Source of the DNA: a virus
Lineage: Duplodnaviria > Heunggongvirae > Uroviricota > Caudoviricetes
IMG/VR virus record: IMGVR_UViG_3300025389_000018
Direction: 5' to 3' (one strand)
DNA length: 64,000 bases
The notes under the pieces: generated by a model
Told to the model about the DNA's origin: nothing
The model's input: the letters and a program-made list of their open reading frames with translations, nothing else
Databases searched by the model: none
Part shown: positions 5,818 through 60,696 of the stretch, piece by piece
How the letters are laid out: every line of letters starts with the position of its first letter
How positions within the stretch are numbered: position 1 is the first letter of the stretch
Position numbers and translations under genes: made by a program

Positions 5818-5855
5818 AAAAAGCCCCACTAATACTTGACTAGTGGGGCTTTTGC
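5818..5855. terminator. Bidirectional rho-independent terminator between convergent genes
   Basis: AAAAGCCCCACTA-atacttgac-TAGTGGGGCTTTT. It has a 9-bp GC stem with A- and T-runs on either side. Confidence 0.7.
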
Positions 5856-7855: not shown

Positions 7856-7950
7856 ACTGGCGAGTAACTTACTGGTGAGTAACTTACCGTACTGGTGAGT
7901 AACTTGCGAACCGACACGCTACTGGCGAGTAAGTTACTGGCGAGTAACTT
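7856..7950. promoter_or_regulatory. Five direct 15-bp repeats ACTGGYGAGTAASTT upstream of int: candidate integrase arm-type sites / attP arm
   Basis: Copies at 7856, 7871, 7891, 7921 and 7936, immediately 5' of the int start. They are followed by the inverted repeat AGGGGCAG-17nt-CTGCCCCT (7975-8008). Confidence 0.6.
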
Positions 7951-8020
7951 AATGGACAAAAAAATAGGGGCAGATAGTCGGATTGACTACCTGCCCCTTA
8001 AAGAAGTTTATCCTTCTTTT

Positions 8021-8300: not shown

Positions 8301-8578
8301 CTAAGCCACTTCCCTTTCTATAACTATTCCATTGGACACTACCGATATAGGGCTTTCATACCCTGTTCCATCGTACATCTTGCCACCCCATACCCCGTAT
8401 ATCCCTCTCTGAGTCTTGGCATAGTTGCTACACGCTTTTAGTAAGTGGCATTTCCTACATATACTTTTCGCTAATTTGATTTCTTCTTTACGCCTAAAGT
8501 TATTCTTTGGGAAGAATACTTCGGGGTCTGTCTGAGCGCATAGTTGAGTTCCGTCATACGGGCTGTCACCACTCATAG
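8301..8578 (-). CDS. whiB: WhiB-like Fe-S transcription factor
   Basis: Four Cys (C..CRKC..CHLLKAC) plus the signature GVWGG turn. The start is refined to an internal ATG with AAGGAGAG RBS (ORF-track start 8654). Confidence 0.7.
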
Positions 8579-8835
8579 TCTCTTGCCCTCTCCTTCCGTT
8601 CTTCTGACTTAGACTCCACTTCATCAAGTGAAACCACCTTAAAGATAAAGTCATAGTTCTCTTTGTTATTCATTTTTTCTAACTTTTTTGCTTCTGACTT
8701 TGCTTTCCTTTTAGTCTTAAATAGCCCATACCAGCAGAGACAATCGGGGTCTGAGAGAGCCGTTGTTATCTCTATACACCACTTGAATTTGCGCTTATAC
8801 ATTTGTATCCACCTCTTTGCTATTAGGTACTGCAT
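8566..8835 (-). CDS. Hypothetical basic protein
   Basis: Lies in the leftward operon with short overlaps to its neighbours. Confidence 0.45.
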   Translation of the reverse strand: MQYLIAKRWIQMYKRKFKWCIEITTALSDPDCLCWYGLFKTKRKAKSEAKKLEKMNNKENYDFIFKVVSLDEVESKSEERKERARDYEW

Positions 8836-10177: not shown

Positions 10178-10589
10178 CTCCTATAACTATTCCAGTTTTA
10201 AGAACCTCTTGAAGTCGTGGCGTTATTTCATTATCGAAATAGTCTCTGCCGTACTTCCATATACGGTCAGGAATTTGGTCTATAACTTCTTTAGTAATAA
10301 ATCCATTTACTAAAGAGGCTACTTTTGCACCTGCGTGTTTATCTCCTTTTAAGAAATAAACTCCACCAATTCTTGATAGACGTAATGCTTCTGTACTGCT
10401 ACCCCTCATGTCATAATCAAGTTCTTTAACTATGAATTTTCTAGTATCTAGTGGTGCGTGTTTCTGCCAATCCCATCCATGAGGGGCAGTGATAGTCACT
10501 TGTTCTAAATCAGGGATTGCTACACGAAAGAAGATAGTCTCCCACCCAGTTATTTCAACCTTTGTTTTTTCCAATAGATTACTGCTCAT
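10155..10589 (-). CDS. Hypothetical protein
   Basis: Operon context. Confidence 0.5.
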   Translation of the reverse strand: MSSNLLEKTKVEITGWETIFFRVAIPDLEQVTITAPHGWDWQKHAPLDTRKFIVKELDYDMRGSSTEALRLSRIGGVYFLKGDKHAGAKVASLVNGFITKEVIDQIPDRIWKYGRDYFDNEITPRLQEVLKTGIVIGDGNAKLV

Positions 10590-11169
10590 TTGTCTCTCTC
10601 TTTTCTAGGTAACTTATTTTCTTATAGACTTTTGATTTTCCTTCAGACGTTTTATAGCCGTACCGAACGAAACGTGACTCTAAGGCAGAAGTAGTTACTC
10701 CTAATGATTTTGCTAACGAATAGCAACTAACTCCTTTTTGCACCTGCTCCCACGCTAACTTAGTGAATAGTTCTGCTTCTTCTCGGTAATTGGTACTTGT
10801 GCTTCTTACTAACTGCGCTTTGTTACGAAGTTCTATTAGTTGTGCTAAAACTTCAGGTTCTACTTCTAACATCTTCCTGTCATAGATAGGAATAGAAGGC
10901 ACTTGCGGTACTCGGTACTTACCCAACACCTTCTCTCTAATTACAGGGTCATTAGCGATTGGCTCATTCACCAACTGTCGGATTCTTTCGCGTGTAACAC
11001 CTATCACATCAGCCATAGATTGAAGTGTCCAGCCTTCATCGCGTAGTGCCTTTAAGTAAGCCTTCTTCTCTTGTAAGTCTAGGTTCTGAATTACACCTAG
11101 TATTCCTTCAGGAAGTTTCATATCAGACTTCTTTTTCTTTGTTCCTACTTGCACTTTATGTATTGTCAT
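10579..11169 (-). CDS. DNA-binding protein with two HTH motifs (sigma-70 region-4-like)
   Basis: GWTLQSMADVIGVTRERIRQL resembles a region-4 HTH. A second HTH is YSLAKSLGVTTSALESRF. Confidence 0.5.
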   Translation of the reverse strand: MTIHKVQVGTKKKKSDMKLPEGILGVIQNLDLQEKKAYLKALRDEGWTLQSMADVIGVTRERIRQLVNEPIANDPVIREKVLGKYRVPQVPSIPIYDRKMLEVEPEVLAQLIELRNKAQLVRSTSTNYREEAELFTKLAWEQVQKGVSCYSLAKSLGVTTSALESRFVRYGYKTSEGKSKVYKKISYLEKRETNEQ

Positions 11170-12083: not shown

Positions 12084-12425
12084 TTATTTTTCTCCTATCA
12101 GTTTCGCTAATGCTTGACGAGTAGGGCAATACTGTGGCTCAAACTCTCCATTCTCAGGTATTAGTTCATATCCACATCCCCTGCATGACCAAAACTTATC
12201 TACTTCATCCCATGACCTGTCATGTATCTCAAAAATCTCTTGCAATACTAGAAGTTCAGAGACATGGGTTTCTATTTGACTTACTCTTTCATGTAGTTTT
12301 GCCAATTCAGATTCGGAATGTATTTCGTTGATACTTTGCTTAAATAAATCCACCAGTTCAGAACGAGTATTCTGTATTTTTGTTTCGAGTACTTTTCGTA
12401 GTTCATCTACTTTGGCGTTGTTCAT
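12084..12425 (-). CDS. Hypothetical coiled-coil protein with C-terminal zinc ribbon (CRGCGY...YCP)
   Basis: Operon context. Confidence 0.45.
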   Translation of the reverse strand: MNNAKVDELRKVLETKIQNTRSELVDLFKQSINEIHSESELAKLHERVSQIETHVSELLVLQEIFEIHDRSWDEVDKFWSCRGCGYELIPENGEFEPQYCPTRQALAKLIGEK

Positions 12426-13880: not shown

Positions 13881-15896
13881 TTATGAATTGGCTACTAGGT
13901 TTCGTGCGATTGCAATTCGTACAAGTTCCCGACCCAATATCGTGATGTCTTTTGCAGACTTGATTTGTGTCAGTAACTCAAACGAGTGGCGATAGTGTTC
14001 GAGATGTTGAGCAGAGATAGTTCCTTGCTCTAAGTAGGCTTGGCAAGTTAGAACGCCAGCATTACGCATTTCCGTAACTGCTTGCTCTCCTTCTTTTGAG
14101 TCCCACATTCCATCCGTAATCATAAATAGAATACGGATTGGCTTATCGGTTTCAGCGAGAACACGTTTCGCGTAGAGAATTGCTTCGTGAGGATTGGTTC
14201 CCCCGTCAGCACCAGCGTCACGAATTGAATTTCCAGCCTTATCCTCAGCACTGTAAAGAAGTGTCGTGTCATAATCGAATAAGCAGACAGTTGTTCGGGC
14301 TTCGACTTCTTCAAGTGCCTTCTTAATTGCCCACATACTTTGATATGCCATGTCTGCATTATTTCCTGCCATTGAACCCGACTTATCTAGCAAGATAACG
14401 GCTTCAATAGAAGTTACATCAGAACGACCTTCTTGCCATTCATCGAAACAAGTATCGAAATCCTCATTATTGAGATAACGATTGACATTCAAGCGACCTG
14501 TATCAACTTCTGACTCCCATGCAGGGTCAAACTTTGCGCGTAAGCGTTCGAGTTCACGACCAAACGCTTTAGAAGTTAGCACCAGTTCAGGATTAGCAGG
14601 TACTTCTCTGTGTCGGGCTTTAATTGGCGTAGTTACATTTCCGCCATTTAATCCAACATCAACACCCATCTGCTTTGCGATTTGATTTATCTCTTTAGAT
14701 AACTCGCGCAAGGCTTCATCCATAATGCCATCAAGTATTTGTGATACCTGTTGATTAGTGCCTGTTGTACCTTTATCTGTTCCTATTCCCTTTGCAGGAT
14801 TGGATGGAGAAGGTTCAAGGTCTAAGTCAATCTCTTCGTCATAGTCCCATTCCTCATCTTCCTCATCAAACGGCGATGGTGTAGTGCTGTCAGGATTTTT
14901 TACTGCGGATTTATCTTCTTTAGAAGTTTCCTCAGTTACATCTCCCTCAGTTACATCGCCATCAGTTGTATCAGTTGTATCTTCATCAGTTGCAGGAGAG
15001 AGTTCTATATCTACAACAAGAACGGGCTTTGGATTGTCCTTGCTCTTACTCCTTCCTAAGTCGCTCTCTTGCTGTGCGCGACTAACTGGTCGGACACTAC
15101 TGCTATCTACCCCTTGTGTTGGGCGAGTGCTATGACCCATAGGGTCACTAATGCGAACTATAACTGTCTGACCACCTTGACCATTACTACTGCTCTGTGT
15201 CGGTGCTAACTGCTTTATCAACTCGTCTAACTCTTTGATAAGTACCTTCGCTCTTTCCGTTGCTGTTCGTACTTCTTCAATAGAACCTACGAATATCAGT
15301 TGTCGGTATTCATCAACGATGTTATAGATTGCTTCTACATCTTGTGGTCGTTGGTAGTTATCAACTGCTAACTGTTGGATTTCAGTAGGCAGATACCTAC
15401 GACCAGTAATAAGAGGAAACGCTGTTGGTAGTGCTTCCTCGTTTTTAATGATGTAGTTAGTAACTACGGCTGTTAGCCACTTAGCAATACTTGGCAAGTA
15501 ACCGACTAACAAGGTTTCGATTCGGTTGTCCTCTAGCACGTTAAACGTATTCCATAGGTCATTCTGTTGTACCCATGCTATGAAAGGCGTACCAGTTCTA
15601 GGCGTATAGCGGAGATGTCCTAACTCATGGAAATCAAGTCCTTGCAGTTCCAAGATAGTTTCAGCAGTAATCTCGTCATGCAACTCAGCCAAGTTAAGCC
15701 ACATTTGCGTACTGCTTGACCATGCAGGAGATTCGATTAAAGGTTCATCTACTACACTTACCGAGATTTTTCGACCTGTCAAAACACTATTAGTGCGAGC
15801 GAATACACTCGCAAGTTTAGTGATGTGACTGCGCTTTAATTGCTGTAGTTCTTTTGCTTTGTCCTCTTGGCTTTGCTCTTTAATGAACGCTCTCAT
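13881..15896 (-). CDS. von Willebrand factor A domain protein (CobT-like partner of the MoxR ATPase)
   Basis: vWA MIDAS motif ILLDKSGSM near the C-terminus, with an acidic low-complexity linker (TDEDTTDTTDGDVTEGDVTEE). It sits adjacent to the AAA+ gene. Confidence 0.8.
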   Translation of the reverse strand: MRAFIKEQSQEDKAKELQQLKRSHITKLASVFARTNSVLTGRKISVSVVDEPLIESPAWSSSTQMWLNLAELHDEITAETILELQGLDFHELGHLRYTPRTGTPFIAWVQQNDLWNTFNVLEDNRIETLLVGYLPSIAKWLTAVVTNYIIKNEEALPTAFPLITGRRYLPTEIQQLAVDNYQRPQDVEAIYNIVDEYRQLIFVGSIEEVRTATERAKVLIKELDELIKQLAPTQSSSNGQGGQTVIVRISDPMGHSTRPTQGVDSSSVRPVSRAQQESDLGRSKSKDNPKPVLVVDIELSPATDEDTTDTTDGDVTEGDVTEETSKEDKSAVKNPDSTTPSPFDEEDEEWDYDEEIDLDLEPSPSNPAKGIGTDKGTTGTNQQVSQILDGIMDEALRELSKEINQIAKQMGVDVGLNGGNVTTPIKARHREVPANPELVLTSKAFGRELERLRAKFDPAWESEVDTGRLNVNRYLNNEDFDTCFDEWQEGRSDVTSIEAVILLDKSGSMAGNNADMAYQSMWAIKKALEEVEARTTVCLFDYDTTLLYSAEDKAGNSIRDAGADGGTNPHEAILYAKRVLAETDKPIRILFMITDGMWDSKEGEQAVTEMRNAGVLTCQAYLEQGTISAQHLEHYRHSFELLTQIKSAKDITILGRELVRIAIARNLVANS

Positions 15897-17901: not shown

Positions 17902-18099
17902 TTATTTAGCCTCTCTCTTTTCATCTAGGTATTGTTGAAACGTGCTTACACTCGCTACTAACTCATTAGCGATTTGACCGATTTCACTTGATTCGGAGAA
18001 GTCGGTAATTGTTTTATCTTTCAGTAGTTCATTTGCTCGTTGCATTAACTTCCGCGCATAAGCGAAGTCACTTCTTACTTCAGATTTTGTAGTCACCAT
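17902..18099 (-). CDS. Hypothetical small protein
   Basis: Isolated small ORF. Confidence 0.35.
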   Translation of the reverse strand: MVTTKSEVRSDFAYARKLMQRANELLKDKTITDFSESSEIGQIANELVASVSTFQQYLDEKREAK

Positions 18100-18549
18100 T
18101 TGTCCTTCTCCATTCGTTGTTGTTGATTACTCCCACCAAGTAATCACCACCACTTACCTGCTATACCTGCTCATAACAAGATGGCAAGTAAGTGATAGAA
18201 ACTATTTGCTGTTATTGAAATTGGTGTCGAAGATGTTTATTGCACTAGGCATAGACACGCAACTAATTGTTAGTTGCCACCAGTATCGCGTGTGAGTAAC
18301 TCATAGCCGTAACTATGAGTGTCACCTAATCACTTCACATTGTTGTAGTCATTTATTTTGTGATGTTAGTAGAAGTTGTTAGCGATGAATACGCGCTACT
18401 AATTGCACGACAGTTGTTATCTTGTGAAAGTGATTTTGTCAGATTCCAAACCGAAGGTTTTTCTGACCACCTGTCCGTAGAGGGCGATACGTGAGAATTA
18501 TATGGTTAAAGAAGATTGAAACGCAAGTACCCCACAAGTACCAATTATC

Positions 18550-18775
18550 GGCGTGTTTTGAGCGTGATTTGAGCGTGATTTGGGGGATTGCGCCCATAAC
18601 GGGGGCAGGAATAGGGGTAGAGATTGCCCCACCTAACCCACCTAGCCCACCTACCGATGGCAGAAGTGATAAAGATTTATTTTTCTTTTATTCAGTAACG
18701 ATTAACAAGTTCTTAATAGATAGAGAGATAGATAGATATAAGAGATAGATAGATACATCGTGATACATCGTGATT
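18550..18775. repeat. Cluster of short tandem repeats: TGAGCGTGATT x2 (18559-18580), CCCACCTAN x3 (18628-18654), GATAGATA-type repeats and ATACATCGTG x2 (18753-18773)
   Basis: Read directly in the ORF-free 18100-19238 region. Confidence 0.7.
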
Positions 18776-18910
18776 GTTAGATAAGTTCTTTATCATCATT
18801 GAACAATACTATTGACACTACATTCACATTGTTATGTATTAGAGATTTATTTATGTTTATTCATGTGAATAATGCTTAACACATAATCCAAGTGATAAAG
18901 AAGATTGAAT

Positions 18911-18970
18911 AGTAAATAGTTGATAACATCTCAGAGAGATAGTAAATAGTTGATAACATCTCAGAGAGAT
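18911..18970. repeat. Perfect 30-bp tandem duplication AGTAAATAGTTGATAACATCTCAGAGAGAT x2
   Basis: Exact adjacent copies. They contain TTGATAAC (DnaA-box-like / iteron-like). Confidence 0.8.
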
Positions 18971-19238
18971 GGCTGTCAGTCTGGTCATGCAAACACACAA
19001 GACATCCGATTAAACGACAGTAGCCGAAGTAATCGCGTGGTCTGCTATCAAAACTGCTATCAAACTATTTAATATCGCGTGATTCACGCGGAGATAGAAC
19101 AATAAATACAAGTGATAGAAACTTGTTGCGAGTGTAATCGCGTGATAATTCAACAACATTGTTGCGTGATAGGGGCACAGTTAAGTCAAAATCGCCTATG
19201 GAAGGGCCAGGTTTCAGGCATGGTTGAGGGTATTGGGG

Positions 19239-19799
19239 CTAGGCAGTAGCCGAAATAGCGGTTCCTTTAGCGAGATTGCACTTTGCATGGGCTATTTTGA
19301 CGTTTTCTAAGGTGTCATCTCCGCCTAGAGAGAGGGGAATGACATGTTCTACGTGTGGGTAGGTCTCCCAGCCTGGGTCCTTCATGTTGTGAGGGGCAGT
19401 TAAGTCAACAGGAGTGCCACAGAGGTAGCAATCGTAGCCATCACGGTCAAATATCTGTTGTCTGGTGTAGTAAGAGCGCTTATTGCCCCTATTTCTAGCG
19501 CGGTCTCGGTTATTTGGAGGGCGTTTATGTGGGTTTTTCTTGTAATACTCGCGCTCTGTAGCCTTGTACTTAGGGTCTTTATTCTTTTCTCGCATATACG
19601 CGGCAGCGATTGCTCGGCATGGGGCACATGCCACACCGTTATTTCTACGGCAACGGTCATAGTCGCCCCTTGAAACGCCATGTTGATTACGAAGAAGTTC
19701 TTTTTTCTCAGTATTGACCTTTTTCTTCATAGCCCGTATGAGACGACGCGTGAGAATGCCTCGTTCTATAGTCTCAACTCTTTGAGAAACCTCATCCAC
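19239..19799 (-). CDS. HNH endonuclease
   Basis: YPHVEHVIPLSLGGDDTLENVKIAHAKCN HNH core, with upstream Cys pairs. Confidence 0.75.
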   Translation of the reverse strand: MDEVSQRVETIERGILTRRLIRAMKKKVNTEKKELLRNQHGVSRGDYDRCRRNNGVACAPCRAIAAAYMREKNKDPKYKATEREYYKKNPHKRPPNNRDRARNRGNKRSYYTRQQIFDRDGYDCYLCGTPVDLTAPHNMKDPGWETYPHVEHVIPLSLGGDDTLENVKIAHAKCNLAKGTAISATA

Positions 19800-19914
19800 A
19801 GCAGAAGCATACCTCCCCTATCAAATAAGAGTTCAAACCTCAGAGATAAGGCAGTAGCCATAGAATCACCCTGACAGATTCGCTACCTGTTCAGCAAAGC
19901 CTCTCAGCAATGGG

Positions 19915-19930
19915 GGGCTTTGTGCTATCC
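19915..19930 (+). promoter_or_regulatory. Repeated element GGGCTTTGTGCTATCC, copy 1 (3' half of a hairpin with CAAAGCC at 19895-19901)
   Basis: Four copies lie within the ORF-free GC-richer region 19875-20990. Confidence 0.5.
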
Positions 19931-20405
19931 TTTAATAGCATGAAACTGCTCAATCCTCCGTACTGTCCAGAAATGCACTAGTACGGCAGCTTTAGGCCCC
20001 AAAAGAGTTTTAACCGTTTTCGCTGGACGTGTTGACTCCTTTGGGGCCTTCTGTTATTCTCTTACTATTGCCGTGACTAGCAATCGCTACCCTGAGCGTG
20101 ATAATGGGTGTAGGCATAGCTCCCGAATGAGTGCCTGTACTAAACCTTACAGATGTGTCCAGATAGAGGCACGTGGTTGCTCCTACTCGGAGGATTTAGG
20201 GTATAGAGTCGGTAAAGGGCGGACTAGTCATCCGCTGCTTTGCACCAACTGACTAGGCCGAACCTAGCAGTAGAACTTCATATGTTGCACTCTCAGGTTT
20301 GAGAATGCTGCATACGTCTTTCGAGTACAGGTCCCACTGCAAGAACCACACGTAGGCGCCGTATGGTGCACAGCGACGAAAGTTGCCAACAATACGTGCT
20401 TGAGT

Positions 20406-20422
20406 GGGACTTTGTGCTATCC
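20406..20422 (+). promoter_or_regulatory. Repeated element GGGACTTTGTGCTATCC(TGACAC), copy 2
   Basis: Same motif. The TGACAC extension is shared with copy 4. Confidence 0.5.
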
Positions 20423-20620
20423 TGACACCAAGGCCTGTTTTCTAGAGTGCGCGGGTCTTACCCATCCTATAAGGAGAAGAAAGAAATTTCTGAACCGTAT
20501 AGTGGTACCCTTGGGGTATCGTCTGAATGACAACGAATCTGACTGGCAAACGGTTAAGGTCGCTCCTGAGACACCAGTTAGCTGCCAAAGCCCTCGTAGG
20601 TACACTTGACCAATCTACGG

Positions 20621-20637
20621 GGGCTTTGTGCTAATAT
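20621..20637 (+). promoter_or_regulatory. Repeated element GGGCTTTGTGCTAATAT, copy 3 (hairpin partner CCAAAGCCC at 20586-20594)
   Basis: Variant tail. Confidence 0.45.
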
Positions 20638-20819
20638 AGAGCGATTCGGCACCGTATCGTAGATTGCATGGAAACATGCAGGTACTAACGCGGTATGCAG
20701 CATAGTCGACAATGACTGCACGGTTCCCAGAGAAATCAGGTCATAAATCTCTGAGCTACATTGCCCTCAATGTCTGCGTATGGAAACTTACGCACCCGCT
20801 CCGCGGCTTAAGCCATTGA

Positions 20820-20836
20820 GGGCTTTGTGCTATCCT
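20820..20836 (+). promoter_or_regulatory. Repeated element GGGCTTTGTGCTATCC(TGACAC), copy 4 (hairpin partner AAGCC at 20810-20814)
   Basis: Same motif. Confidence 0.5.
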
Positions 20837-20992
20837 GACACTGGTGGCAACAGGTACTACCTGGGCTCTCTCCGCAAGGACACGCCCTCACCCCACCGTT
20901 GGAGAGCGATTCTAGTTGCCAGATGCAAATAAGGCCTCCCGTCCTGGGCTCGACGTTAAAGGCGCCCATAACTTTTGTGATAACGTCTTCCT

Positions 20993-21298
20993 ATGAGCTT
21001 ACTTCCACCTGTAGTGGCTGTACTAGATGAGAAATTTAATCTTGGAATACCTGGCTCTTATGACGAGTGGTACAAGATAACTACGGATGTACTTAATGAG
21101 CCAAACGGGTACGTAGTGTGGCACTACCCGCCAGAAGATAAAGGCATGGGGAAGCCGTACAACACCTTCACTCTCTTACCAGGAATGGTAATGAGACTTG
21201 GAATGGGGACACTCCATCGGGAGGTAGTCTTCCGCCGTGGGTTTCCACTGGGGAAAGTGGTAACTTTAGAAGAAGAAGAAACTCTTTGGAACTCATAG
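20993..21298 (+). CDS. Small hypothetical protein ending ...EEEETLWNS (LW-tail family)
   Basis: First gene of the rightward early array. Confidence 0.5.
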   Translation: MSLLPPVVAVLDEKFNLGIPGSYDEWYKITTDVLNEPNGYVVWHYPPEDKGMGKPYNTFTLLPGMVMRLGMGTLHREVVFRRGFPLGKVVTLEEEETLWNS

Positions 21299-21310
21299 AA
21301 GGGGGAATAT

Positions 21311-21697
21311 ATGAACTCAAATTACAACGCACTACAGGGGTATAACGTAGTCACCTCTAATTCTTACATTAACTCTCCGCGCACTAGAAGAGTTATAGAA
21401 GTTACGTTAGATGAAGAGTTTGAAATACCGCAATACGGATTCTTTGTCCTTCAACTTTTGGTGGAGGAAGATGCGCACTACACACTCTCGCTTGTACAAC
21501 TCGCCGTCAATGTGCCTGCAGCAACACAAAAAGGCTCTTTTAATCTTGGTGTGTTTCCTGATGCCAAAGTTCTCTCTTGCTCAAGAATTCCAAAAGGGGT
21601 AGATAAGTACACCTTTTACATATGGGAGAACGCGATTGTATGTGACGTAAGTAGGTCGTCCTATGACACCTACGAAGGGATGTTGTGGCAGCAATGA
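21311..21697 (+). CDS. Small hypothetical protein ending CDVSRSSYDTYEGMLWQQ (LW-tail family, CD[LV][TS]xS subfamily)
   Basis: RBS GAAGGGGG. Confidence 0.5.
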   Translation: MNSNYNALQGYNVVTSNSYINSPRTRRVIEVTLDEEFEIPQYGFFVLQLLVEEDAHYTLSLVQLAVNVPAATQKGSFNLGVFPDAKVLSCSRIPKGVDKYTFYIWENAIVCDVSRSSYDTYEGMLWQQ

Positions 21698-38014: not shown

Positions 38015-38030
38015 CCTTAATTACCTCAAG

Positions 38031-38068
38031 AAAGGCCCCCATATTAAAAGTGGGGGTTTTTTCTTTTG
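38031..38068 (+). terminator. Rho-independent terminator
   Basis: GGCCCCCA-tattaaaag-TGGGGGTTTTTTCTTTTG. Confidence 0.8.
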
Positions 38069-41176: not shown

Positions 41177-43513
41177 ATGGAAAACTACGACGAAGAAAAA
41201 TTTGAAGAGATAAATCCTGACTTTTATCTCCAGGATGAAGAACCTGTTGTAGAAGAGCAGGAAGAAGAGTTAGATGAGCTTTCTCAACAATTTGTAAATA
41301 AACTCATCGAAAAAATTATGGACTTTTTAGTAGTCCTTGTTGGGCACGATTTACACCCTTACCAAAAACCTTTAGCTAGACGGATAATTGAGTCCGTAAT
41401 CATCAATGATGGTGAAGAAATAACTGCTCTTGCATCTCGTCAGTCAGGTAAATCTGAAACAGTAGCTGATGTCGTAGCAACATTGATGGTTCTTTTACCT
41501 CGGCTTGCAAAGCTGTATCCAGACCTTCTTGGAAAATTTAAAGATGGGTTATGGGTAGGACTCTTTGCTCCTACAGAATCACAGGCCGAAACTCTGTTCG
41601 GGAGAGCAGTGACTCGTCTTACGTCTGAGCGTGCTATTGAAATCATGGATGACCCAGAGATTGACGATAGCACAGCTCGTGTGGGTGGAGTTACTCGGCA
41701 GATTAAGCTTAAAAAATCAGGCTCTACTATCACTATGATGACTGCTAACCCTCGTGCAAAGATTGAATCTAAGTCGTTCCACTTGGTAGTTATTGATGAG
41801 TGCCAAGAAGCGGATGACTTCGTAGTATCCAAATCAATCTCTCCTATGTTGGCTTACTACGCAGGAACGATGGTAAAAACAGGTACACCAACAACAAGCA
41901 AAAACAACTTTTACAGAAGTATTCAACTCAACCGTCGTCGTCAAACTGGGCGTAATTCACGGCAAAATCATTTCCAATGGGACTGGAAAGAAGTCGCGAA
42001 AGTCCAACCTAATTACGAAAAATTTATTCGAAAAGAGATGCTTCGTATCGGTGAAGATTCCGATGAATTTCAGATGTCGTACAACTGCCTTGTTCCAACT
42101 ACTAAAGTCCTTACTTCAGACCTTCAGTATGTGGAGATTGGGTCTGTAAAAGTTGGAGATACTCTCGTAGGATTCGACGAAGAACCAACTACTAAAGGTG
42201 CTCATAGAAAAATACGGAAAACAACTGTAACTAAAGCGGAGCGCATACTTCGTCCTACTTACAATATAGCCCTGTCAGACGGCACAGTTGTGGGCTCATC
42301 AGATGGACATTTATGGCTAGTATCAACAGCTGGTCGTAGAACAGTGTGGAAACGCACAGACGAGCTACTTACTACAGACCGTATTTTTAAAATATTAGAT
42401 ACTTGGGAGAGTGCAGAAGATTATAGAACAGGGTATCTAGCGGCTGCATTTGATGGGGAGGGGCACTTCTCTCGTCAAGCAATGCTCGGATTCTCTCAGA
42501 GAGATAATGTCATGCTTTCAAAGGTAAGGAAGTATCTGACTGAGTTGGGATTTAAGTATTGGGAACGGCATGACACAGGTACTAATGGCGATGTAACTGT
42601 TCTCCATATAGCAGGCGGACGTGCGAGCATGTCTAGATTCTTGGGACAAATACGTCCAGAACGATTACTTAAGAAAGTGAACTTGGATGAGTTCGGGTCT
42701 ATAGGCCGTCATGATTTCGTCGGACAAGACTTTGAACACCCTCTAGTTGTTTCAGTGGAGTATGTTGGTGAGCAAGAGGTTGTAGCTCTTGAAACAACGA
42801 CGAAAACCTTTATCGCAGAAGGATTAGCTTCTCATAACTGCAAATGGTTGTTAGAAAGAGGTATGTTCGTCACTTCTACAGTCATGGATGAGTTAGGAGA
42901 CACTTCGCAAGAGGTCGTAAGAGCATGGCATAAAACTCCCGTAGTAGTGGGAATTGACCCAGCTCGTAAGACTGACTCAACAGTAGTCACTGTTGTTTGG
43001 GTTGACTGGGATAGGCCAGACGAGTTCGGCTACTTCGACCATCGAGTGTTGAACTGGTTGGAACTTCAAGGAGAAGATTGGGAAGAACAATACTTTCAGA
43101 TTGTAAACTTCTTAGAGAATTATGACGTGCTTGCTATAGGGGTAGATGCTAACGGTGTAGGAGACGCAGTAGCCCAACGTCTAAAGCTTCTAATGCCTCG
43201 CGCTGAAGTAACTGCTCTTACCTCCAGTCCATCAGAACAATCGAAGAGGTGGAAACACTTACAGGCATTGATTCAGAGAAAAATGATTAGTTGGCCTGCA
43301 CATGCAAAGGTTCGCAGAGGAAGAACTTTTAGGCGTTTTTATCAGCAGATGACGGATGCCGAAGTTACGTTTAAAGGCCCTAACTACATGGTTGCAGCCC
43401 CCGATGAAGCCCATGCCCACGATGACTTTGTGGATTCACTCTCTATTGCTTGCAGCCTTACCCAGAACCTTGTTATGCCGGAAGTAGTTGCTTCTAGTAA
43501 TCCCTTCTTTTAA
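41177..43513 (+). CDS. Terminase large subunit (ATPase + nuclease) interrupted by an intein
   Basis: Walker A ASRQSGKSE and Walker B HLVVIDECQEADD. The host protein remains in frame around the intein. Confidence 0.8.
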   Translation: MENYDEEKFEEINPDFYLQDEEPVVEEQEEELDELSQQFVNKLIEKIMDFLVVLVGHDLHPYQKPLARRIIESVIINDGEEITALASRQSGKSETVADVVATLMVLLPRLAKLYPDLLGKFKDGLWVGLFAPTESQAETLFGRAVTRLTSERAIEIMDDPEIDDSTARVGGVTRQIKLKKSGSTITMMTANPRAKIESKSFHLVVIDECQEADDFVVSKSISPMLAYYAGTMVKTGTPTTSKNNFYRSIQLNRRRQTGRNSRQNHFQWDWKEVAKVQPNYEKFIRKEMLRIGEDSDEFQMSYNCLVPTTKVLTSDLQYVEIGSVKVGDTLVGFDEEPTTKGAHRKIRKTTVTKAERILRPTYNIALSDGTVVGSSDGHLWLVSTAGRRTVWKRTDELLTTDRIFKILDTWESAEDYRTGYLAAAFDGEGHFSRQAMLGFSQRDNVMLSKVRKYLTELGFKYWERHDTGTNGDVTVLHIAGGRASMSRFLGQIRPERLLKKVNLDEFGSIGRHDFVGQDFEHPLVVSVEYVGEQEVVALETTTKTFIAEGLASHNCKWLLERGMFVTSTVMDELGDTSQEVVRAWHKTPVVVGIDPARKTDSTVVTVVWVDWDRPDEFGYFDHRVLNWLELQGEDWEEQYFQIVNFLENYDVLAIGVDANGVGDAVAQRLKLLMPRAEVTALTSSPSEQSKRWKHLQALIQRKMISWPAHAKVRRGRTFRRFYQQMTDAEVTFKGPNYMVAAPDEAHAHDDFVDSLSIACSLTQNLVMPEVVASSNPFF
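42086..42838 (+). mobile_element. Intein (Hint domain with LAGLIDADG homing-endonuclease motif) within the terminase large subunit
   Basis: N-terminal splice junction YN|CLVPTT, LAGLIDADG-like GYLAAAFDGEGHF, and C-terminal ...LASHN|C (His-Asn plus +1 Cys). Confidence 0.7.
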
Positions 43514-55096: not shown

Positions 55097-56084
55097 AGTT
55101 CAATGCCTCTTCTACTAGCTCATCAATTATTGCTCCTGGTGTCCTAAGAACAAAAGCAGCGTTATCTTGAAAGCCCCAAGAGATTAGCAAGTCTCCATTG
55201 TGGACTGCTGCTCCTACGCAAAACTCAATCAATCCATCTAAGAACTTAAACTGCTTTGATATTCCTATTAGGCTGAAGTTATCATCCCATACTAAGACTC
55301 TATGAAAATAATGACCATCTTTCTGGTTCAGGTAGTTCTTAAATAAATGTACATCATGGCTTATTGAGATGTACTTGTCTTTCCAACGGATAAGATGAGA
55401 GCTTCCACGTTGGTCTAGTGGAGGTACCAATCCAGGCCTCAAGTCTACCTGAGTGCATTTAGGCGTATCTTTGTTGGCTTTTACAATCTCTACTGGGGAA
55501 GCCCATTTAATAAAATGATAAGGCTTATCTAAAATAGGTACCCAGTTTTTCTCACAATAAGAGTCATCTGGAAATGGTGCAGGAATTCGCACTCTTTTTG
55601 TTTCAGTAACAGTCCATTTAGCTTTATCAAGAGTCACGTGGGAGTACTCCATACGTCCTACCCCATTATTGGTTGTATCTCGTCGTACTCCTATCAGGAA
55701 GTATTGACCTTCCCATTGAACTAAACGGCAGTCTTCCAGTCCTACAAACTCCCAAAGAGGAGTATGTAAATCCAACATCTCCACATGAGAGTAGTCGGTC
55801 ATAACTAAGTCTTCGTTAAGACGACAAACATAGTTCTCCGTCACTAGTCTTTGGTCTTTTTCTGGATGAAGATACGCCAGTGGTCCCCATCTAGAGGGGA
55901 ATAGTTGCTTATTCTCTGAGTGATACAGGGAGTAATTGACGTGGCGCAAATTAACCAGGATATCCCCGTCATCATCTATAAATATAGAAGGATTCATAAG
56001 CCCTGTTCCAGAGGTTAAACCTTGAGGTATCACTAGAGGGGCCAGTTTTCCGCCTTGTAAAACGGACCGTTGGACTAGGTTCAT
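55086..56084 (-). CDS. Beta-propeller glycosidase-like protein (GH130/DUF377-like)
   Basis: N-terminal LMNPSIFIDDDGD and GLEDCRLV, resembling the NPx / EDPR motifs of 5-bladed propeller glycosidases. Confidence 0.4.
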   Translation of the reverse strand: MNLVQRSVLQGGKLAPLVIPQGLTSGTGLMNPSIFIDDDGDILVNLRHVNYSLYHSENKQLFPSRWGPLAYLHPEKDQRLVTENYVCRLNEDLVMTDYSHVEMLDLHTPLWEFVGLEDCRLVQWEGQYFLIGVRRDTTNNGVGRMEYSHVTLDKAKWTVTETKRVRIPAPFPDDSYCEKNWVPILDKPYHFIKWASPVEIVKANKDTPKCTQVDLRPGLVPPLDQRGSSHLIRWKDKYISISHDVHLFKNYLNQKDGHYFHRVLVWDDNFSLIGISKQFKFLDGLIEFCVGAAVHNGDLLISWGFQDNAAFVLRTPGAIIDELVEEALNYGN

Positions 56085-60286: not shown

Positions 60287-60296
60287 GTAATAAAGC

Positions 60297-60330
60297 AATT
60301 GGCCCCCCAATTAGGGGGCCTTTTGTTTAT
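60297..60330 (+). terminator. Rho-independent terminator
   Basis: GGCCCCCC-aatta-GGGGGCC followed by TTTTGTTT. Confidence 0.8.
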
Positions 60331-60339
60331 ACTTATTAC

Positions 60340-60696
60340 ATGGGAAAACACATTCATCTTCTTTCTGACATTAACACGGACTCAAGAACTGGAATCTGCT
60401 CTAACTGTGGCCCAGTAAAAATAAAAACTAAAGGCGTAAACAGGTGGGGTTGTGCTAAGGCTAAATGGGCGCAACGCAGTCCTTGGCTAAAGCACAGGAA
60501 AGAAGTTTGCGAAAGGTGCGGCTTTGTGCCTGAGCATGAATGCCAACTAGATGTAGACCACATAGACGGCAACAAAAACAACAATTCCTTGGATAATCTA
60601 AAAACTCTATGTGCAAACTGCCATAGGCTAAAGACGTATCAAAACAAAGACTGGGAAAACAAAGTTATCGAAGTTAACCCTTCCGAAATCCCTTAA
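60340..60696 (+). CDS. HNH endonuclease
   Basis: CSNCG...HIDGNKNNNSLDNLKTLCANCH. Confidence 0.7.
   Translation: MGKHIHLLSDINTDSRTGICSNCGPVKIKTKGVNRWGCAKAKWAQRSPWLKHRKEVCERCGFVPEHECQLDVDHIDGNKNNNSLDNLKTLCANCHRLKTYQNKDWENKVIEVNPSEIP

Follow-up and report, generated by a model that had tools for sequence, protein, structure and literature searches.

A predicted chain of short RNA units with fused terminator–promoter junctions in the control region of a tailed phage

An ORF-free stretch within a larger control region

The stretch of DNA considered here (the window) comprises 64,000 nucleotides (nt) of a tailed phage of the class Caudoviricetes, IMG/VR record IMGVR_UViG_3300025389_000018, and our subject is the 1193 nt at positions 19800–20992, where the longest open reading frame (ORF) encodes fewer than 70 amino acids (aa). 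The region lies between an HNH endonuclease gene (19239–19799, − strand) and a 101-aa ORF (20993–21298, + strand), and its GC content is 0.50, compared with 0.443 for the 64-kb window as a whole. About 1.1 kb had been described here as ORF-free and GC-richer in an original prediction made from the sequence alone, and our analysis bears out both properties, with no ORF of ≥70 aa. What was missed is that the ORF-free stretch is one portion of a 2.9-kb control region (18100–20992) interrupted by the HNH gene. It is probable, in our judgment, that this 1.2-kb region is a rightward chain of units that makes short non-coding RNAs early, using the host polymerase, and that one of its products, which we call RNA-B, is a bona fide structured RNA.

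The region is 100% identical across six independent assemblies from ENA, JGI, and Logan samples and is therefore not an assembly artifact; the original prediction had allowed for an ORF hidden by a sequencing or assembly error, and these six identical copies speak against one. The copies carry no variation usable for comparison, and the contigs that match the 101-aa ORF and a 128-aa ORF exactly are all >99.9% identical to the window, too uniform for covariation analysis. A blastn search of the region against INPHARED (50,697 phage records, E up to 5) gave no match, nor did the whole window against Rfam at gathering thresholds; at E values up to 10, Rfam returned only two irrelevant matches for 19700–21100, and ARAGORN detected no tRNA or tmRNA in the window. 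Related loci were obtained with the Band_7 and CobS-like proteins of the phage as search anchors, the CobS-like protein giving L231 (82% identity), L232 and L233 (72%), and L234–L237 (≈60%); the array is missing from every relative obtained with either anchor.

That the region is coding after all, either through small proteins such as a leaderless 23-codon ORF from the GTG at 20844 or through a gene broken by sequencing error, is highly improbable. ORFs of 50–69 aa do exist, and that GTG lies 7 nt after the −10 hexamer of the fourth copy of the motif described below. However, the five longest small ORFs have no Pfam match, translated similarity of the region to any locus fetched is absent, all six assemblies agree, and promoter and terminator signals, not ribosome-binding sites, mark the ends of the units. 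Pseudogene remains were also rejected, given the lack of translated similarity.

A repeated motif resembling an extended −10 promoter

The motif CTTTGTGCTA is present exactly four times, at 19918, 20410, 20624, and 20823, always on the + strand; the rest of the 64 kb contains no further exact copy and four matches with one mismatch, which is the level expected by chance. This agrees with the four copies first reported, all of them confined to the region. Successive copies lie 492, 214, and 199 nt apart, an irregularity for which we rejected a CRISPR array, and copies 2 and 4 both run on as TATCCTGACAC, the identical continuation already remarked upon. Two diverged copies had been overlooked, TCTGTTATTCT at 20050–20060 and TTTGTGATAACGT at 20974–20986. 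In the public annotation of contig L133, positions 711–1435, equivalent to 19910–20634 and running from motif copy 1 to copy 3, appear as a "gene" with a "23-residue product"; this is probably a false CRISPR-like repeat-array call triggered by the motif.

Each copy can be read as part of a putative promoter on the + strand. Copy 1 (P1, 19918–19931) joins CTTTGTGC to the hexamer TATCCT (19926–19931), with a predicted start at ≈19938. Copies 2 (P3, 20410–20423; predicted start ≈20430) and 4 (P5, 20823–20836; predicted start ≈20843) have the same two parts, P3 lacking a terminator hairpin and P5 having no terminator ahead of the ORF, and copy 3 (P4, 20624–20637; predicted start ≈20644) joins CTTTGTGC to TAATAT. 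The diverged fifth copy (GGGGCCTTCTGTTATTCT) belongs to P2 (20032–20060; predicted start ≈20067), where TTGACT-17 nt-TATTCT with a TG forms the sole full sigma-70-type match in 19200–21400. A sixth copy of the promoter half, P6 (20974–20986, + strand), ends 6 nt before the ATG at 20993. Together, the six copies read TGTGC-TATCCT (three times), TGTGC-TAATAT, CTGT-TATTCT, and TGTGA-TAACGT, and all variation among them spares the first T, the A, and the final T of the hexamer. These three bases (T1, A2, and T6) are found also in TAGAAT at P0, a promoter at the head of the array that is discussed below. The TG one base 5′ of the hexamer, absent from P0, lies within TGTGC or TGTGA except in the diverged fifth copy, which has CTGT.

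Outside the region, TGnTAnnnT is more strongly depleted than any other of the 64 patterns of the form XYnTAnnnZ (82 observed versus 157 expected; ratio 0.52, z −7.5), and every pattern ending in TAnnnT is depleted there. Avoidance of stop codons can account for only part of this depletion, by our estimate about half. Within the 1.2-kb region, the pattern occurs seven times on the + strand and once on the − strand, with no + strand occurrence between 20061 and 20414. Two start codons follow a TGTGA element at a set distance, TGTGA-TAACGT preceding the ATG at 20993 by 6 nt and TGTGA-TAGGTT preceding the ATG at 56084 (−) by 6 nt, and TAnnnT followed by 6 nt and a start codon is found also at 100, 60340, and 19799 (−). 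The five ORFs with these first starts are predicted to be expressed as leaderless mRNAs. Other genes, such as that at 21311, have clear Shine–Dalgarno sites, indicating that the phage uses both modes.

The phage encodes a WhiB-family protein (8301–8654; Pfam score 52.5 bits against a cut-off of 23.6). WhiB is considered exclusive to Actinobacteriota and a marker of their phages, and isolated "Ca. Planktophila" phages have a GC content of 44.8% (PMC10202952), beside 44.3% for the window; from the WhiB gene and this similarity in GC, we infer that the host is a low-GC actinobacterium (≈44% GC). Promoters of the Bacteroidota type were rejected on the basis of the Shine–Dalgarno sites on other genes and the WhiB gene.

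Extended −10 promoters do not need a −35 box and are read by sigma regions 2 and 3, the contact between region 4 and the −35 box being dispensable; TRTG is the Gram-positive form of their TG element. In Mycobacterium smegmatis, TANNNT is the −10 element of SigA and ≈24% of transcripts are leaderless (PMC6448022), and in the genes of Mycobacterium tuberculosis TANNNT is depleted in all reading frames (PMC10653884). Like those SigA promoters (PMC6448022, PMC10653884), the elements described here have TAnnnT with a TG one base upstream, no conserved −35 box, start codons 6–7 nt past the hexamer, and depletion of the motif inside genes. Unlike them, they include a longer (C)TTTGTGC block, peculiar to this phage and its relatives, that serves at the same time as a terminator tail; the organisms compared are Mycobacterium on one side and a probable low-GC (≈44%) lineage on the other, with promoter activity in the latter predicted. 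The evidence fits a reading of TGTGnTAnnnT as an extended −10 promoter of the actinobacterial SigA type. An extended −10 of the form TGnTAnnnT had been suggested at the outset, and the suggestion gains from the retention of T-A-n-n-n-T, from its having the strongest depletion elsewhere, and from the leaderless distance to two start codons. Because copy 2 has the motif without a hairpin, termination does not explain the conservation of the motif.

It had also been suggested that the motif is recognized jointly with a sigma-region-4-like protein encoded at 10579–11169. This link is unsupported, since the Sigma70_r4/HTH score falls below threshold (22.2 bits against a cut-off of 24.1), extended −10 recognition can do without region 4, and the gene sits in a conserved leftward operon of relatives in which the array is absent.

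An exact 16-mer scan of viral contigs returned 11 loci, among which the only real relative is L006 (marginally also L009), and the same scan of genome contigs returned at least 120 loci from all phyla, which represent chance or generic AAAGCCC…GGGCTTT terminators. The base after TATCC in those genome-contig matches shows no preference for T, and therefore the tail is not a promoter in those genomes. The longer motif TTTGTGCTATCCTGACA had no match in viral contigs.

Hairpins as putative terminators fused to the promoters

Three of the four motif copies are accompanied by a significant hairpin. In a shuffle test of the hairpins ending in GGGCTTTG, copy 1 has 13 bp (energy −20.1, z −3.0), copy 3 has 16 bp (−31.7, z −6.2), and copy 4 is branched (−36.2, z −4.7), whereas at copy 2 the hairpin is not significant (z +0.05). 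The claim that each copy carries a hairpin thus stands for copies 1, 3, and 4 and fails for copy 2, and the 5′ arm CAAAGCC ascribed to copy 4 is in fact CCCTCAATG. As + strand RNA, the hairpins of copy 1 (T1, 19894–19923), copy 3 (T4, 20586–20628; z −6.2), and copy 4 (T5, 20758–20830; z −4.7) fold with −19.6, −24.4, and −32.0 kcal/mol, compared with −10.0, −18.3, and −29.4 kcal/mol for the − strand. A long hairpin proposed at 19993–20046 proved real at 19994–20049 (T2, + strand; −32.7 kcal/mol for 19985–20060, z −4.8); it closes the predicted RNA-A, and the diverged motif copy at 20050–20060 comes directly after it.

The stems contain G·U pairs and, for T1 and T4, are more stable as + strand RNA, which argues for a role as RNA rather than as DNA. 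We rejected minus-strand terminators, there being no U-tract and weaker folds on the − strand. For the repeats to work as DNA instead, as iterons or operators of a replication origin or repressor with the hairpins serving as inverted-repeat binding sites, would agree with their uneven spacing as direct repeats, with their location in an extensive non-coding region that separates divergent operons, and with the perfect 7-bp inverted repeat CAAAGCC/GGCTTTG of copies 1 and 3. We nevertheless regard this as very unlikely: pairing of the arms through G·U is meaningless in duplex DNA, loop length varies between 4 and 35 nt, the partner arm is missing in copy 2 and replaced by another in copy 4, and the AT-rich stretch at 18100–19238, with CGTGAT(A) repeats and conservation in six relatives, is a far better candidate for an origin or operator.

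The tails that follow the stems, UUUGUGCUAU or UUCUGUUAUU, have 4–6 U in ≈10 nt (4–5 U in 9 nt), and T1 is terminator-like in a consensus scan, which copy 1 passes. By comparison, the U runs of the canonical terminators at other sites in the phage are longer. These terminators are bidirectional or L-shaped, with GC-rich stems, and lie at 5818–5852, 38028–38065, 60292–60327, and ≈7935–7967 (−); the phage normally employs textbook terminators, and the short, interrupted tails of the array stand out. The array hairpins resemble intrinsic terminators in having a GC-rich hairpin, with a tail that may pass as U-rich, and in that one copy occupies the place of canonical terminators. They differ in that one copy has no hairpin and in that the tail is interrupted (UUUGUGCUAU) because it overlaps the promoter.

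Together with the small stem-loop upstream, copy 1 matches what immediately follows an Hsp20 stop codon in two phages, with 87% identity in L006, a related phage by tblastx, and 79% identity in L139; the copy 1 homologues lie 20–30 nt past that codon. At the equivalent Hsp20 position, L140 and L141 have textbook terminators, for example AAAGCCCCGCC-GTTA-GGCGGGGTTTTGCTTTTTTT, with a separate TGTGCTAGTCT or TATGTTAGTCT ≈20 nt downstream. The copy 1 hairpin is thus the positional homologue of canonical terminators in related phages, and a repeated terminator/promoter cassette, one of the readings originally offered, fits the evidence. In the window the two signals are fused, with the tail CUUUGUGCU also forming the TRTG part of the promoter, and the same terminator–promoter fusion is found at 60292–60340 (GGGGGCCTTTTGTT-TATACT-6 nt-ATG). 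The small hairpin GACAG-AUUCGCUAC-CUGUU (19873–19891, + strand) folds also in the Hsp20 3′ untranslated region (UTR) of L006, L139, and L140, where stem changes preserve pairing (A-U to G·U and G·U to G-C); across viral contigs, the Hsp20-UTR pattern matched L006 and L139 only.

Motif and hairpin are separable, as copy 2 has the motif without a hairpin and the 3′ hairpin of RNA-B lacks the motif. L006 has a −10 element plus an extra ≈125-nt unit closed by its own hairpin, and L139 lacks both and is collinear afterward, so an entire promoter–RNA–terminator module is present in one phage and absent from the other.

RNA-B and its counterpart in a viral tRNA array

RNA-B (20067–20245, + strand; ≈178 nt), with hairpins H1, H2, Hc, Hd, Hx, He, and Hf, is defined by alignment with contig L198 and by compensatory changes. 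Positions 20064–20246 align over ≈180 columns with L198 14199–14378, at 65% identity counting gaps and 76% mean column identity, and the core (20174–20240) is 85% identical. In L198, the match exactly fills the spacer between tRNA-Trp (14130–14201) and tRNA-Leu(tag) (14376–14450) of a 10-tRNA array. The two phages otherwise share only Band_7 (62% aa and ≈67% DNA identity) and one other gene; RNA-B is therefore conserved at least as well as the best shared gene, in a different context.

Local folds of RNA-B agree between the two sequences, and RNAalifold identifies five pairs with compensatory double changes, the stems changing with compensation and the loops remaining constant. H1 is UUGC/GCAA in the window and GUGUA/UACAC in L198 around the loop GUGACUA, Hd is CUGUA/UACAG and CGCCA/UGGCG around CUAA(A)CCU, and He is CUCC/GGAG and CUAC/GUAG around UACUC. 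In H2, UACCC/GGGUG in the window corresponds to UACCAUUA/UAAUGGUG in L198, including an exchange of C-G for A-U, and here the loop varies; the Hd change and this H2 exchange come on top of the five RNAalifold pairs. Hf is the 3′ terminal hairpin in both, with the loop (C/U)UAGUCA. The two invariant loops of H1 and Hf, GUGACUA and UAGUCA, are complementary over 6 nt, making a kissing interaction possible. Several stem-loops, each a 5-bp stem closed by a 7-nt loop with U as the second loop base, resemble anticodon arms. Single-sequence folding also predicted a long-range helix, which we discarded since the two sequences place it in different registers. P2 would start the transcript at 20067, 1 nt ahead of H1, and tRNA-Trp of L198 ends 1–2 nt ahead of H1, an agreement that provides an independent check on the promoter assignment.

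Neither RNA-B nor the L198 spacer has a match in Rfam. Two different block patterns of RNA-B searched across viral contigs found only the contig of L198, a stem-tolerant pattern in metagenome contigs gave 25 chance matches with no homologue by nhmmer, and nhmmer over all the loci gathered yielded no further member.

Of the suggestion that the region is a cluster of structured RNAs, the part that concerns RNA-B is upheld by its conservation and compensatory changes in another phage. We conclude that at least one product of the region, RNA-B, is probably a conserved RNA of several hairpins, functional in its own right, which in L198 is presumably released by tRNA processing. As for its role, we would guess at a stable early RNA directed at the translation or tRNA machinery of the host, or at a defense that targets this machinery. 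A bolder extension, which we put forward as a speculation with the odds well against it, is that RNA-B and perhaps its neighbors belong to a new family of phage structured RNAs functionally tied to viral tRNA arrays, forming an "RNA arsenal" expressed early, whose members would mimic or decoy tRNA-directed host factors (anticodon nucleases, for example), with the fused junctions acting as recombination joints that move RNA genes between phages.

Small RNAs within phage tRNA clusters have a precedent in phage T4, whose tRNA region includes two non-tRNA small stable RNA species, and the L198 homologue likewise fills a spacer between tRNAs. RNA-B in the window differs in having its own putative promoter and no tRNA neighbors, and it has no sequence or Rfam relationship to those RNAs. 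Two other spacers of the L198 array are also long, 14451–14569 (119 nt), which is closed by a 9-bp stem (GGCGUAUCC…GGAUACGCC), and 14743–14817 (75 nt); these are candidates for further non-tRNA RNAs inside a phage tRNA array. An extended −10-like TATGCTATACT is present within the array, ahead of tRNA-Asn. In the window, UCGCUACC, with UGAC a few nt upstream, occurs at 19880–19887 and 20084–20091. It is placed in the loop of the Hsp20 3′ UTR hairpin (in the window phage, L006, L139, and L140) and near the 5′ end of RNA-B (in the window phage and L198), and it may represent a site for protein binding or processing that both have in common, or mere coincidence.

The putative promoter ahead of the array and its counterparts in relatives

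In all the relatives obtained with the CobS-like protein, an AT-rich control region homologous to 18061–19257 ends in a conserved GGCAGTAGCC block followed by TAAACT or TAATAT, 6–7 nt, and the ATG of the first rightward gene, and the module GGCAGTAGCC-N-TA(A/G)A(C/A)T with 6–7 nt and ATG heads leaderless genes in L231, L233, L234, and L236. The first rightward promoter of the window is disrupted by the HNH gene (19239–19799, −; Pfam HNH, E 7e-8; PHROG HNH/endonuclease VII), a homing-endonuclease gene that splits the 2.9-kb control region at this point. A homologous HNH gene in L231 (902–1549) is flanked by 19-nt direct repeats of promoter sequence, GGCAGTAGCCAAAAGTCTG, and L233–L237 have no HNH gene at this site. 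It looks like a mobile homing cassette aimed at the first rightward promoter.

To the right of the HNH gene, the window retains just the last ≈20 nt of an early gene. Similarity to L231 identifies 19809–19849 (+ strand) as a remnant of the 3′ end of this gene (168 aa in L231) and its downstream spacer, and 19809–19862 is 83% identical to L231 362–309, which covers the gene end and the motif downstream. Next comes P0, GGCAGTAGCC-A-TAGAAT (19850–19866, + strand; predicted start ≈19873), which had been overlooked. A leaderless gene comes after this module in L231, and GACAG…, the start of the array, in the window; P0 would thus be a conserved early promoter now feeding non-coding sequence. None of six relatives with the same flanking architecture has a homologue of 19863–20992, and by this comparison the array is an accessory, mosaic insertion.

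These observations raise the question of whether the array is merely a recombination scrapyard, in which pieces of other phages (the Hsp20 3′ UTR, a tRNA-array RNA, and spare promoter/terminator junctions) were joined at similar terminator–promoter ends after the HNH insertion and loss of the first early genes, each part working individually and the whole having no joint function. The remnant of the deleted gene at 19809–19849 is in keeping with such an origin, as are the presence of an Hsp20 3′ UTR with copy 1 although the window has no Hsp20 gene, the sharing of RNA-B with an otherwise unrelated phage, the gain or loss of units between L006 and L139, and the ORFan status of the downstream ORFs. 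On the other side, five or six intact promoter motifs with their key bases kept argue against decay, and the region is unchanged in six assemblies of different samples, a weak point as these may be one recent clone. As an account of origin it is also compatible with function; as a full explanation we find it doubtful.

Left of the HNH gene, 18100–19238 is a second ORF-poor stretch, with a GC content of ≈0.37–0.38, many short repeats of the CGTGAT(A/T) type, AAGTGATAGAAAC twice, AGAGATAGATAGATA repeats, and an exact 30-nt tandem duplication (18909–18968). Its homology to the 1.3–1.8-kb intergenic region between divergent genes in six relatives makes it a conserved control region, and it is probably an origin and/or operator field. 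An 85-aa ORF inside it (18491–18748) has no family match and looks spurious. GGCAGTAGCC lies at 19242–19251 and 19850–19859, with a near-copy at 19016–19025, three times each in L231, L232, and L233, and at 1185–1194 in L139. It is immediately 5′ of first rightward promoters and always on the transcribed strand, the first site being preceded by a conserved block of ≈50 nt (GCCAGGTGAGAG…GGTTGAGG…). We regard GGCAGTAGCC as a candidate operator for an early-gene regulator of the phage. The stoperator/operator repeats of phage L5 (PMC5712189) are likewise short, asymmetric, intergenic, and of one orientation relative to transcription, a likeness that fits GGCAGTAGCC better than the four-copy motif, which differs from stoperators in being confined to 1.1 kb, carrying a −10 hexamer, and standing after RNA hairpins.

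A proposed chain of early RNA units

Putting these elements in order, we propose that host RNA polymerase with a housekeeping sigma factor of the SigA type would read the region rightward (+) as a chain of short units. Polymerase would enter from P0 (GGCAGTAGCC-TAGAAT, 19850–19866), and transcription would then be stopped and restarted four or five times. At each junction, the hairpin with CUUUGUGCU would serve as the intrinsic terminator of the unit upstream and TGTGnTAnnnT as the extended −10 promoter of the unit downstream, the U-rich tail of the terminator doubling as the TRTG element of the promoter. The products would be non-coding RNAs of ≈55, 120, 180 (possibly up to ≈340), 205, and 190 nt, and P5 and P6 would run into the rightward gene block, where the first ORF would be made as a leaderless mRNA.

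Apart from RNA-B, the predicted units, all on the + strand, vary in how distinctive their folds are. RNA-A (19938–20058; ≈120 nt) has two hairpins and a minimum free energy of −44.3 kcal/mol (z −4.7), with 0 of 200 shuffles as stable. RNA-C (20430–20635; ≈205 nt) is delimited by P3 and T4 (z −1.3), and RNA-D (20644–20835; ≈190 nt) by P4 and T5 (z −1.7). Between RNA-B and P3, 20246–20409 is a promoter-less stretch of four small hairpins, including one with a GAAA tetraloop at 20373–20386 (fold z −1.6), and may be a 3′ extension of the RNA-B transcript. The leader at 20843–20992 is not unusually structured (z +1.2). Tandem paralogous small RNAs were rejected, as the units have only the junction element in common.

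Several observations weigh against this proposal. The starts and stops of the array are all predicted from its sequence features, and these, like the conservation and the depletion statistics, are observed, as distinct from the function of the RNAs other than RNA-B, which is conjectural. RNA-C and RNA-D fold only marginally better than shuffled sequences, and no collection searched contains homologues of RNA-A, RNA-C, or RNA-D, so there is no sign of selection on them. RNA-B as a whole folds no better than shuffles (z +0.2 and −0.8), and its two known members are too few for a statistical test of covariation. The U-tracts at the array hairpins are poor, and termination may be partial; copy 2 lacks a terminator, and the 3′ hairpin of RNA-B is trailed by CUUUGCACC only. 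Six relatives do without the whole array, which is therefore dispensable for the phage group, and the host is inferred rather than identified.

Some of the same facts would suit a purely regulatory leader, in which stacked promoters and leaky terminators set or insulate the level or timing of rightward transcription, acted upon perhaps by an antiterminator or by the WhiB protein of the phage, and the short RNAs except RNA-B are functionless by-products. All elements point toward the rightward operon, the array follows immediately on a conserved early promoter, no terminator stands after the last two promoters, the U-tracts are weak, and RNA-C and RNA-D show little excess structure and no conservation. 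Even so, relatives drive the same operon from the same promoter without such a leader, RNA-B is conserved in a phage where a leader role is irrelevant, RNA-A is strongly structured (z −4.7), and no antiterminator gene was identified. We consider a leader alone unlikely, though the likeliest of the alternatives, and if the RNAs prove to be by-products, the region would be an ordinary regulatory leader, albeit an unusually dense one.

The closest known parallel to the proposed chain of RNA units comes from cluster A mycobacteriophages. In L5, D29, and StarStuff, an ORF-free region of ≈500 bp behind the early promoter Pleft gives rise to very abundant, stable small RNAs; the L5 species are ≈100–500 nt long, of unknown function, and variable in sequence among relatives (PMC5712189). 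Here, too, an actinobacteriophage, as judged above, has an ORF-free stretch between an early promoter with a conserved regulator-type motif and the first gene of an operon, with P0 at 19850–19866, the first ORF at 20993, and no family-matching ORF between them. There is no homology to the L5/D29 region by blastn against the 50,697 phage records. Moreover, L5 uses a single promoter and produces its RNAs by processing, whereas five or six internal promoters would alternate with terminators here and the RNAs are predicted only.

The building blocks, namely, a SigA extended −10, an intrinsic terminator, and a leaderless start, are ordinary; what is unusual is their density, their fusion into one reusable junction, and the inclusion of an RNA whose other known home is a tRNA array. 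Beyond a few model phages, little is known about the non-coding RNAs of phages, and we know of none for phages of uncultured low-GC Actinobacteria. If the proposed chain is correct, the region would offer, in compact form, five or six natural promoter/terminator junctions that suit such hosts, a clear example of entire RNA genes being acquired and lost as promoter–RNA–terminator modules, and a candidate new structured RNA linking a stand-alone RNA island to viral tRNA arrays. The depletion of TGnTAnnnT and the arrangement TAnnnT-6 nt-ATG also provide an inexpensive means of recognizing promoters and leaderless genes in genome sequences of this group of phages.

The first rightward ORF and other features of the phage

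The 101-aa ORF at 20993–21298, whose ATG begins 7 nt after the −10 hexamer of P6 and which is predicted to be leaderless, and the 128-aa ORF are ORFans among 5.8 billion proteins, the 101-aa ORF matching only itself. The genome of the phage is roughly 95–100 kb in size (99 kb in its longest own assembly and 95.8–99.6 kb in relatives) and encodes an integrase, a class II ribonucleotide reductase, a CobS/CobT-like pair, a terminase with an intein, and a collagen-like tail fiber. The large terminase subunit (41177–43513) carries the intein, which includes a LAGLIDADG homing-endonuclease domain (Pfam Terminase_6N/6C, LAGLIDADG_3, and Intein_splicing). Within RNA-A, 19950–19960 holds AAUCCUCCGU, and the extra unit of L006 holds CACCUCCC at ≈12310–12320 (−); both resemble the anti-Shine–Dalgarno end of 16S rRNA, a hint that some units could pair with ribosome-binding sites.

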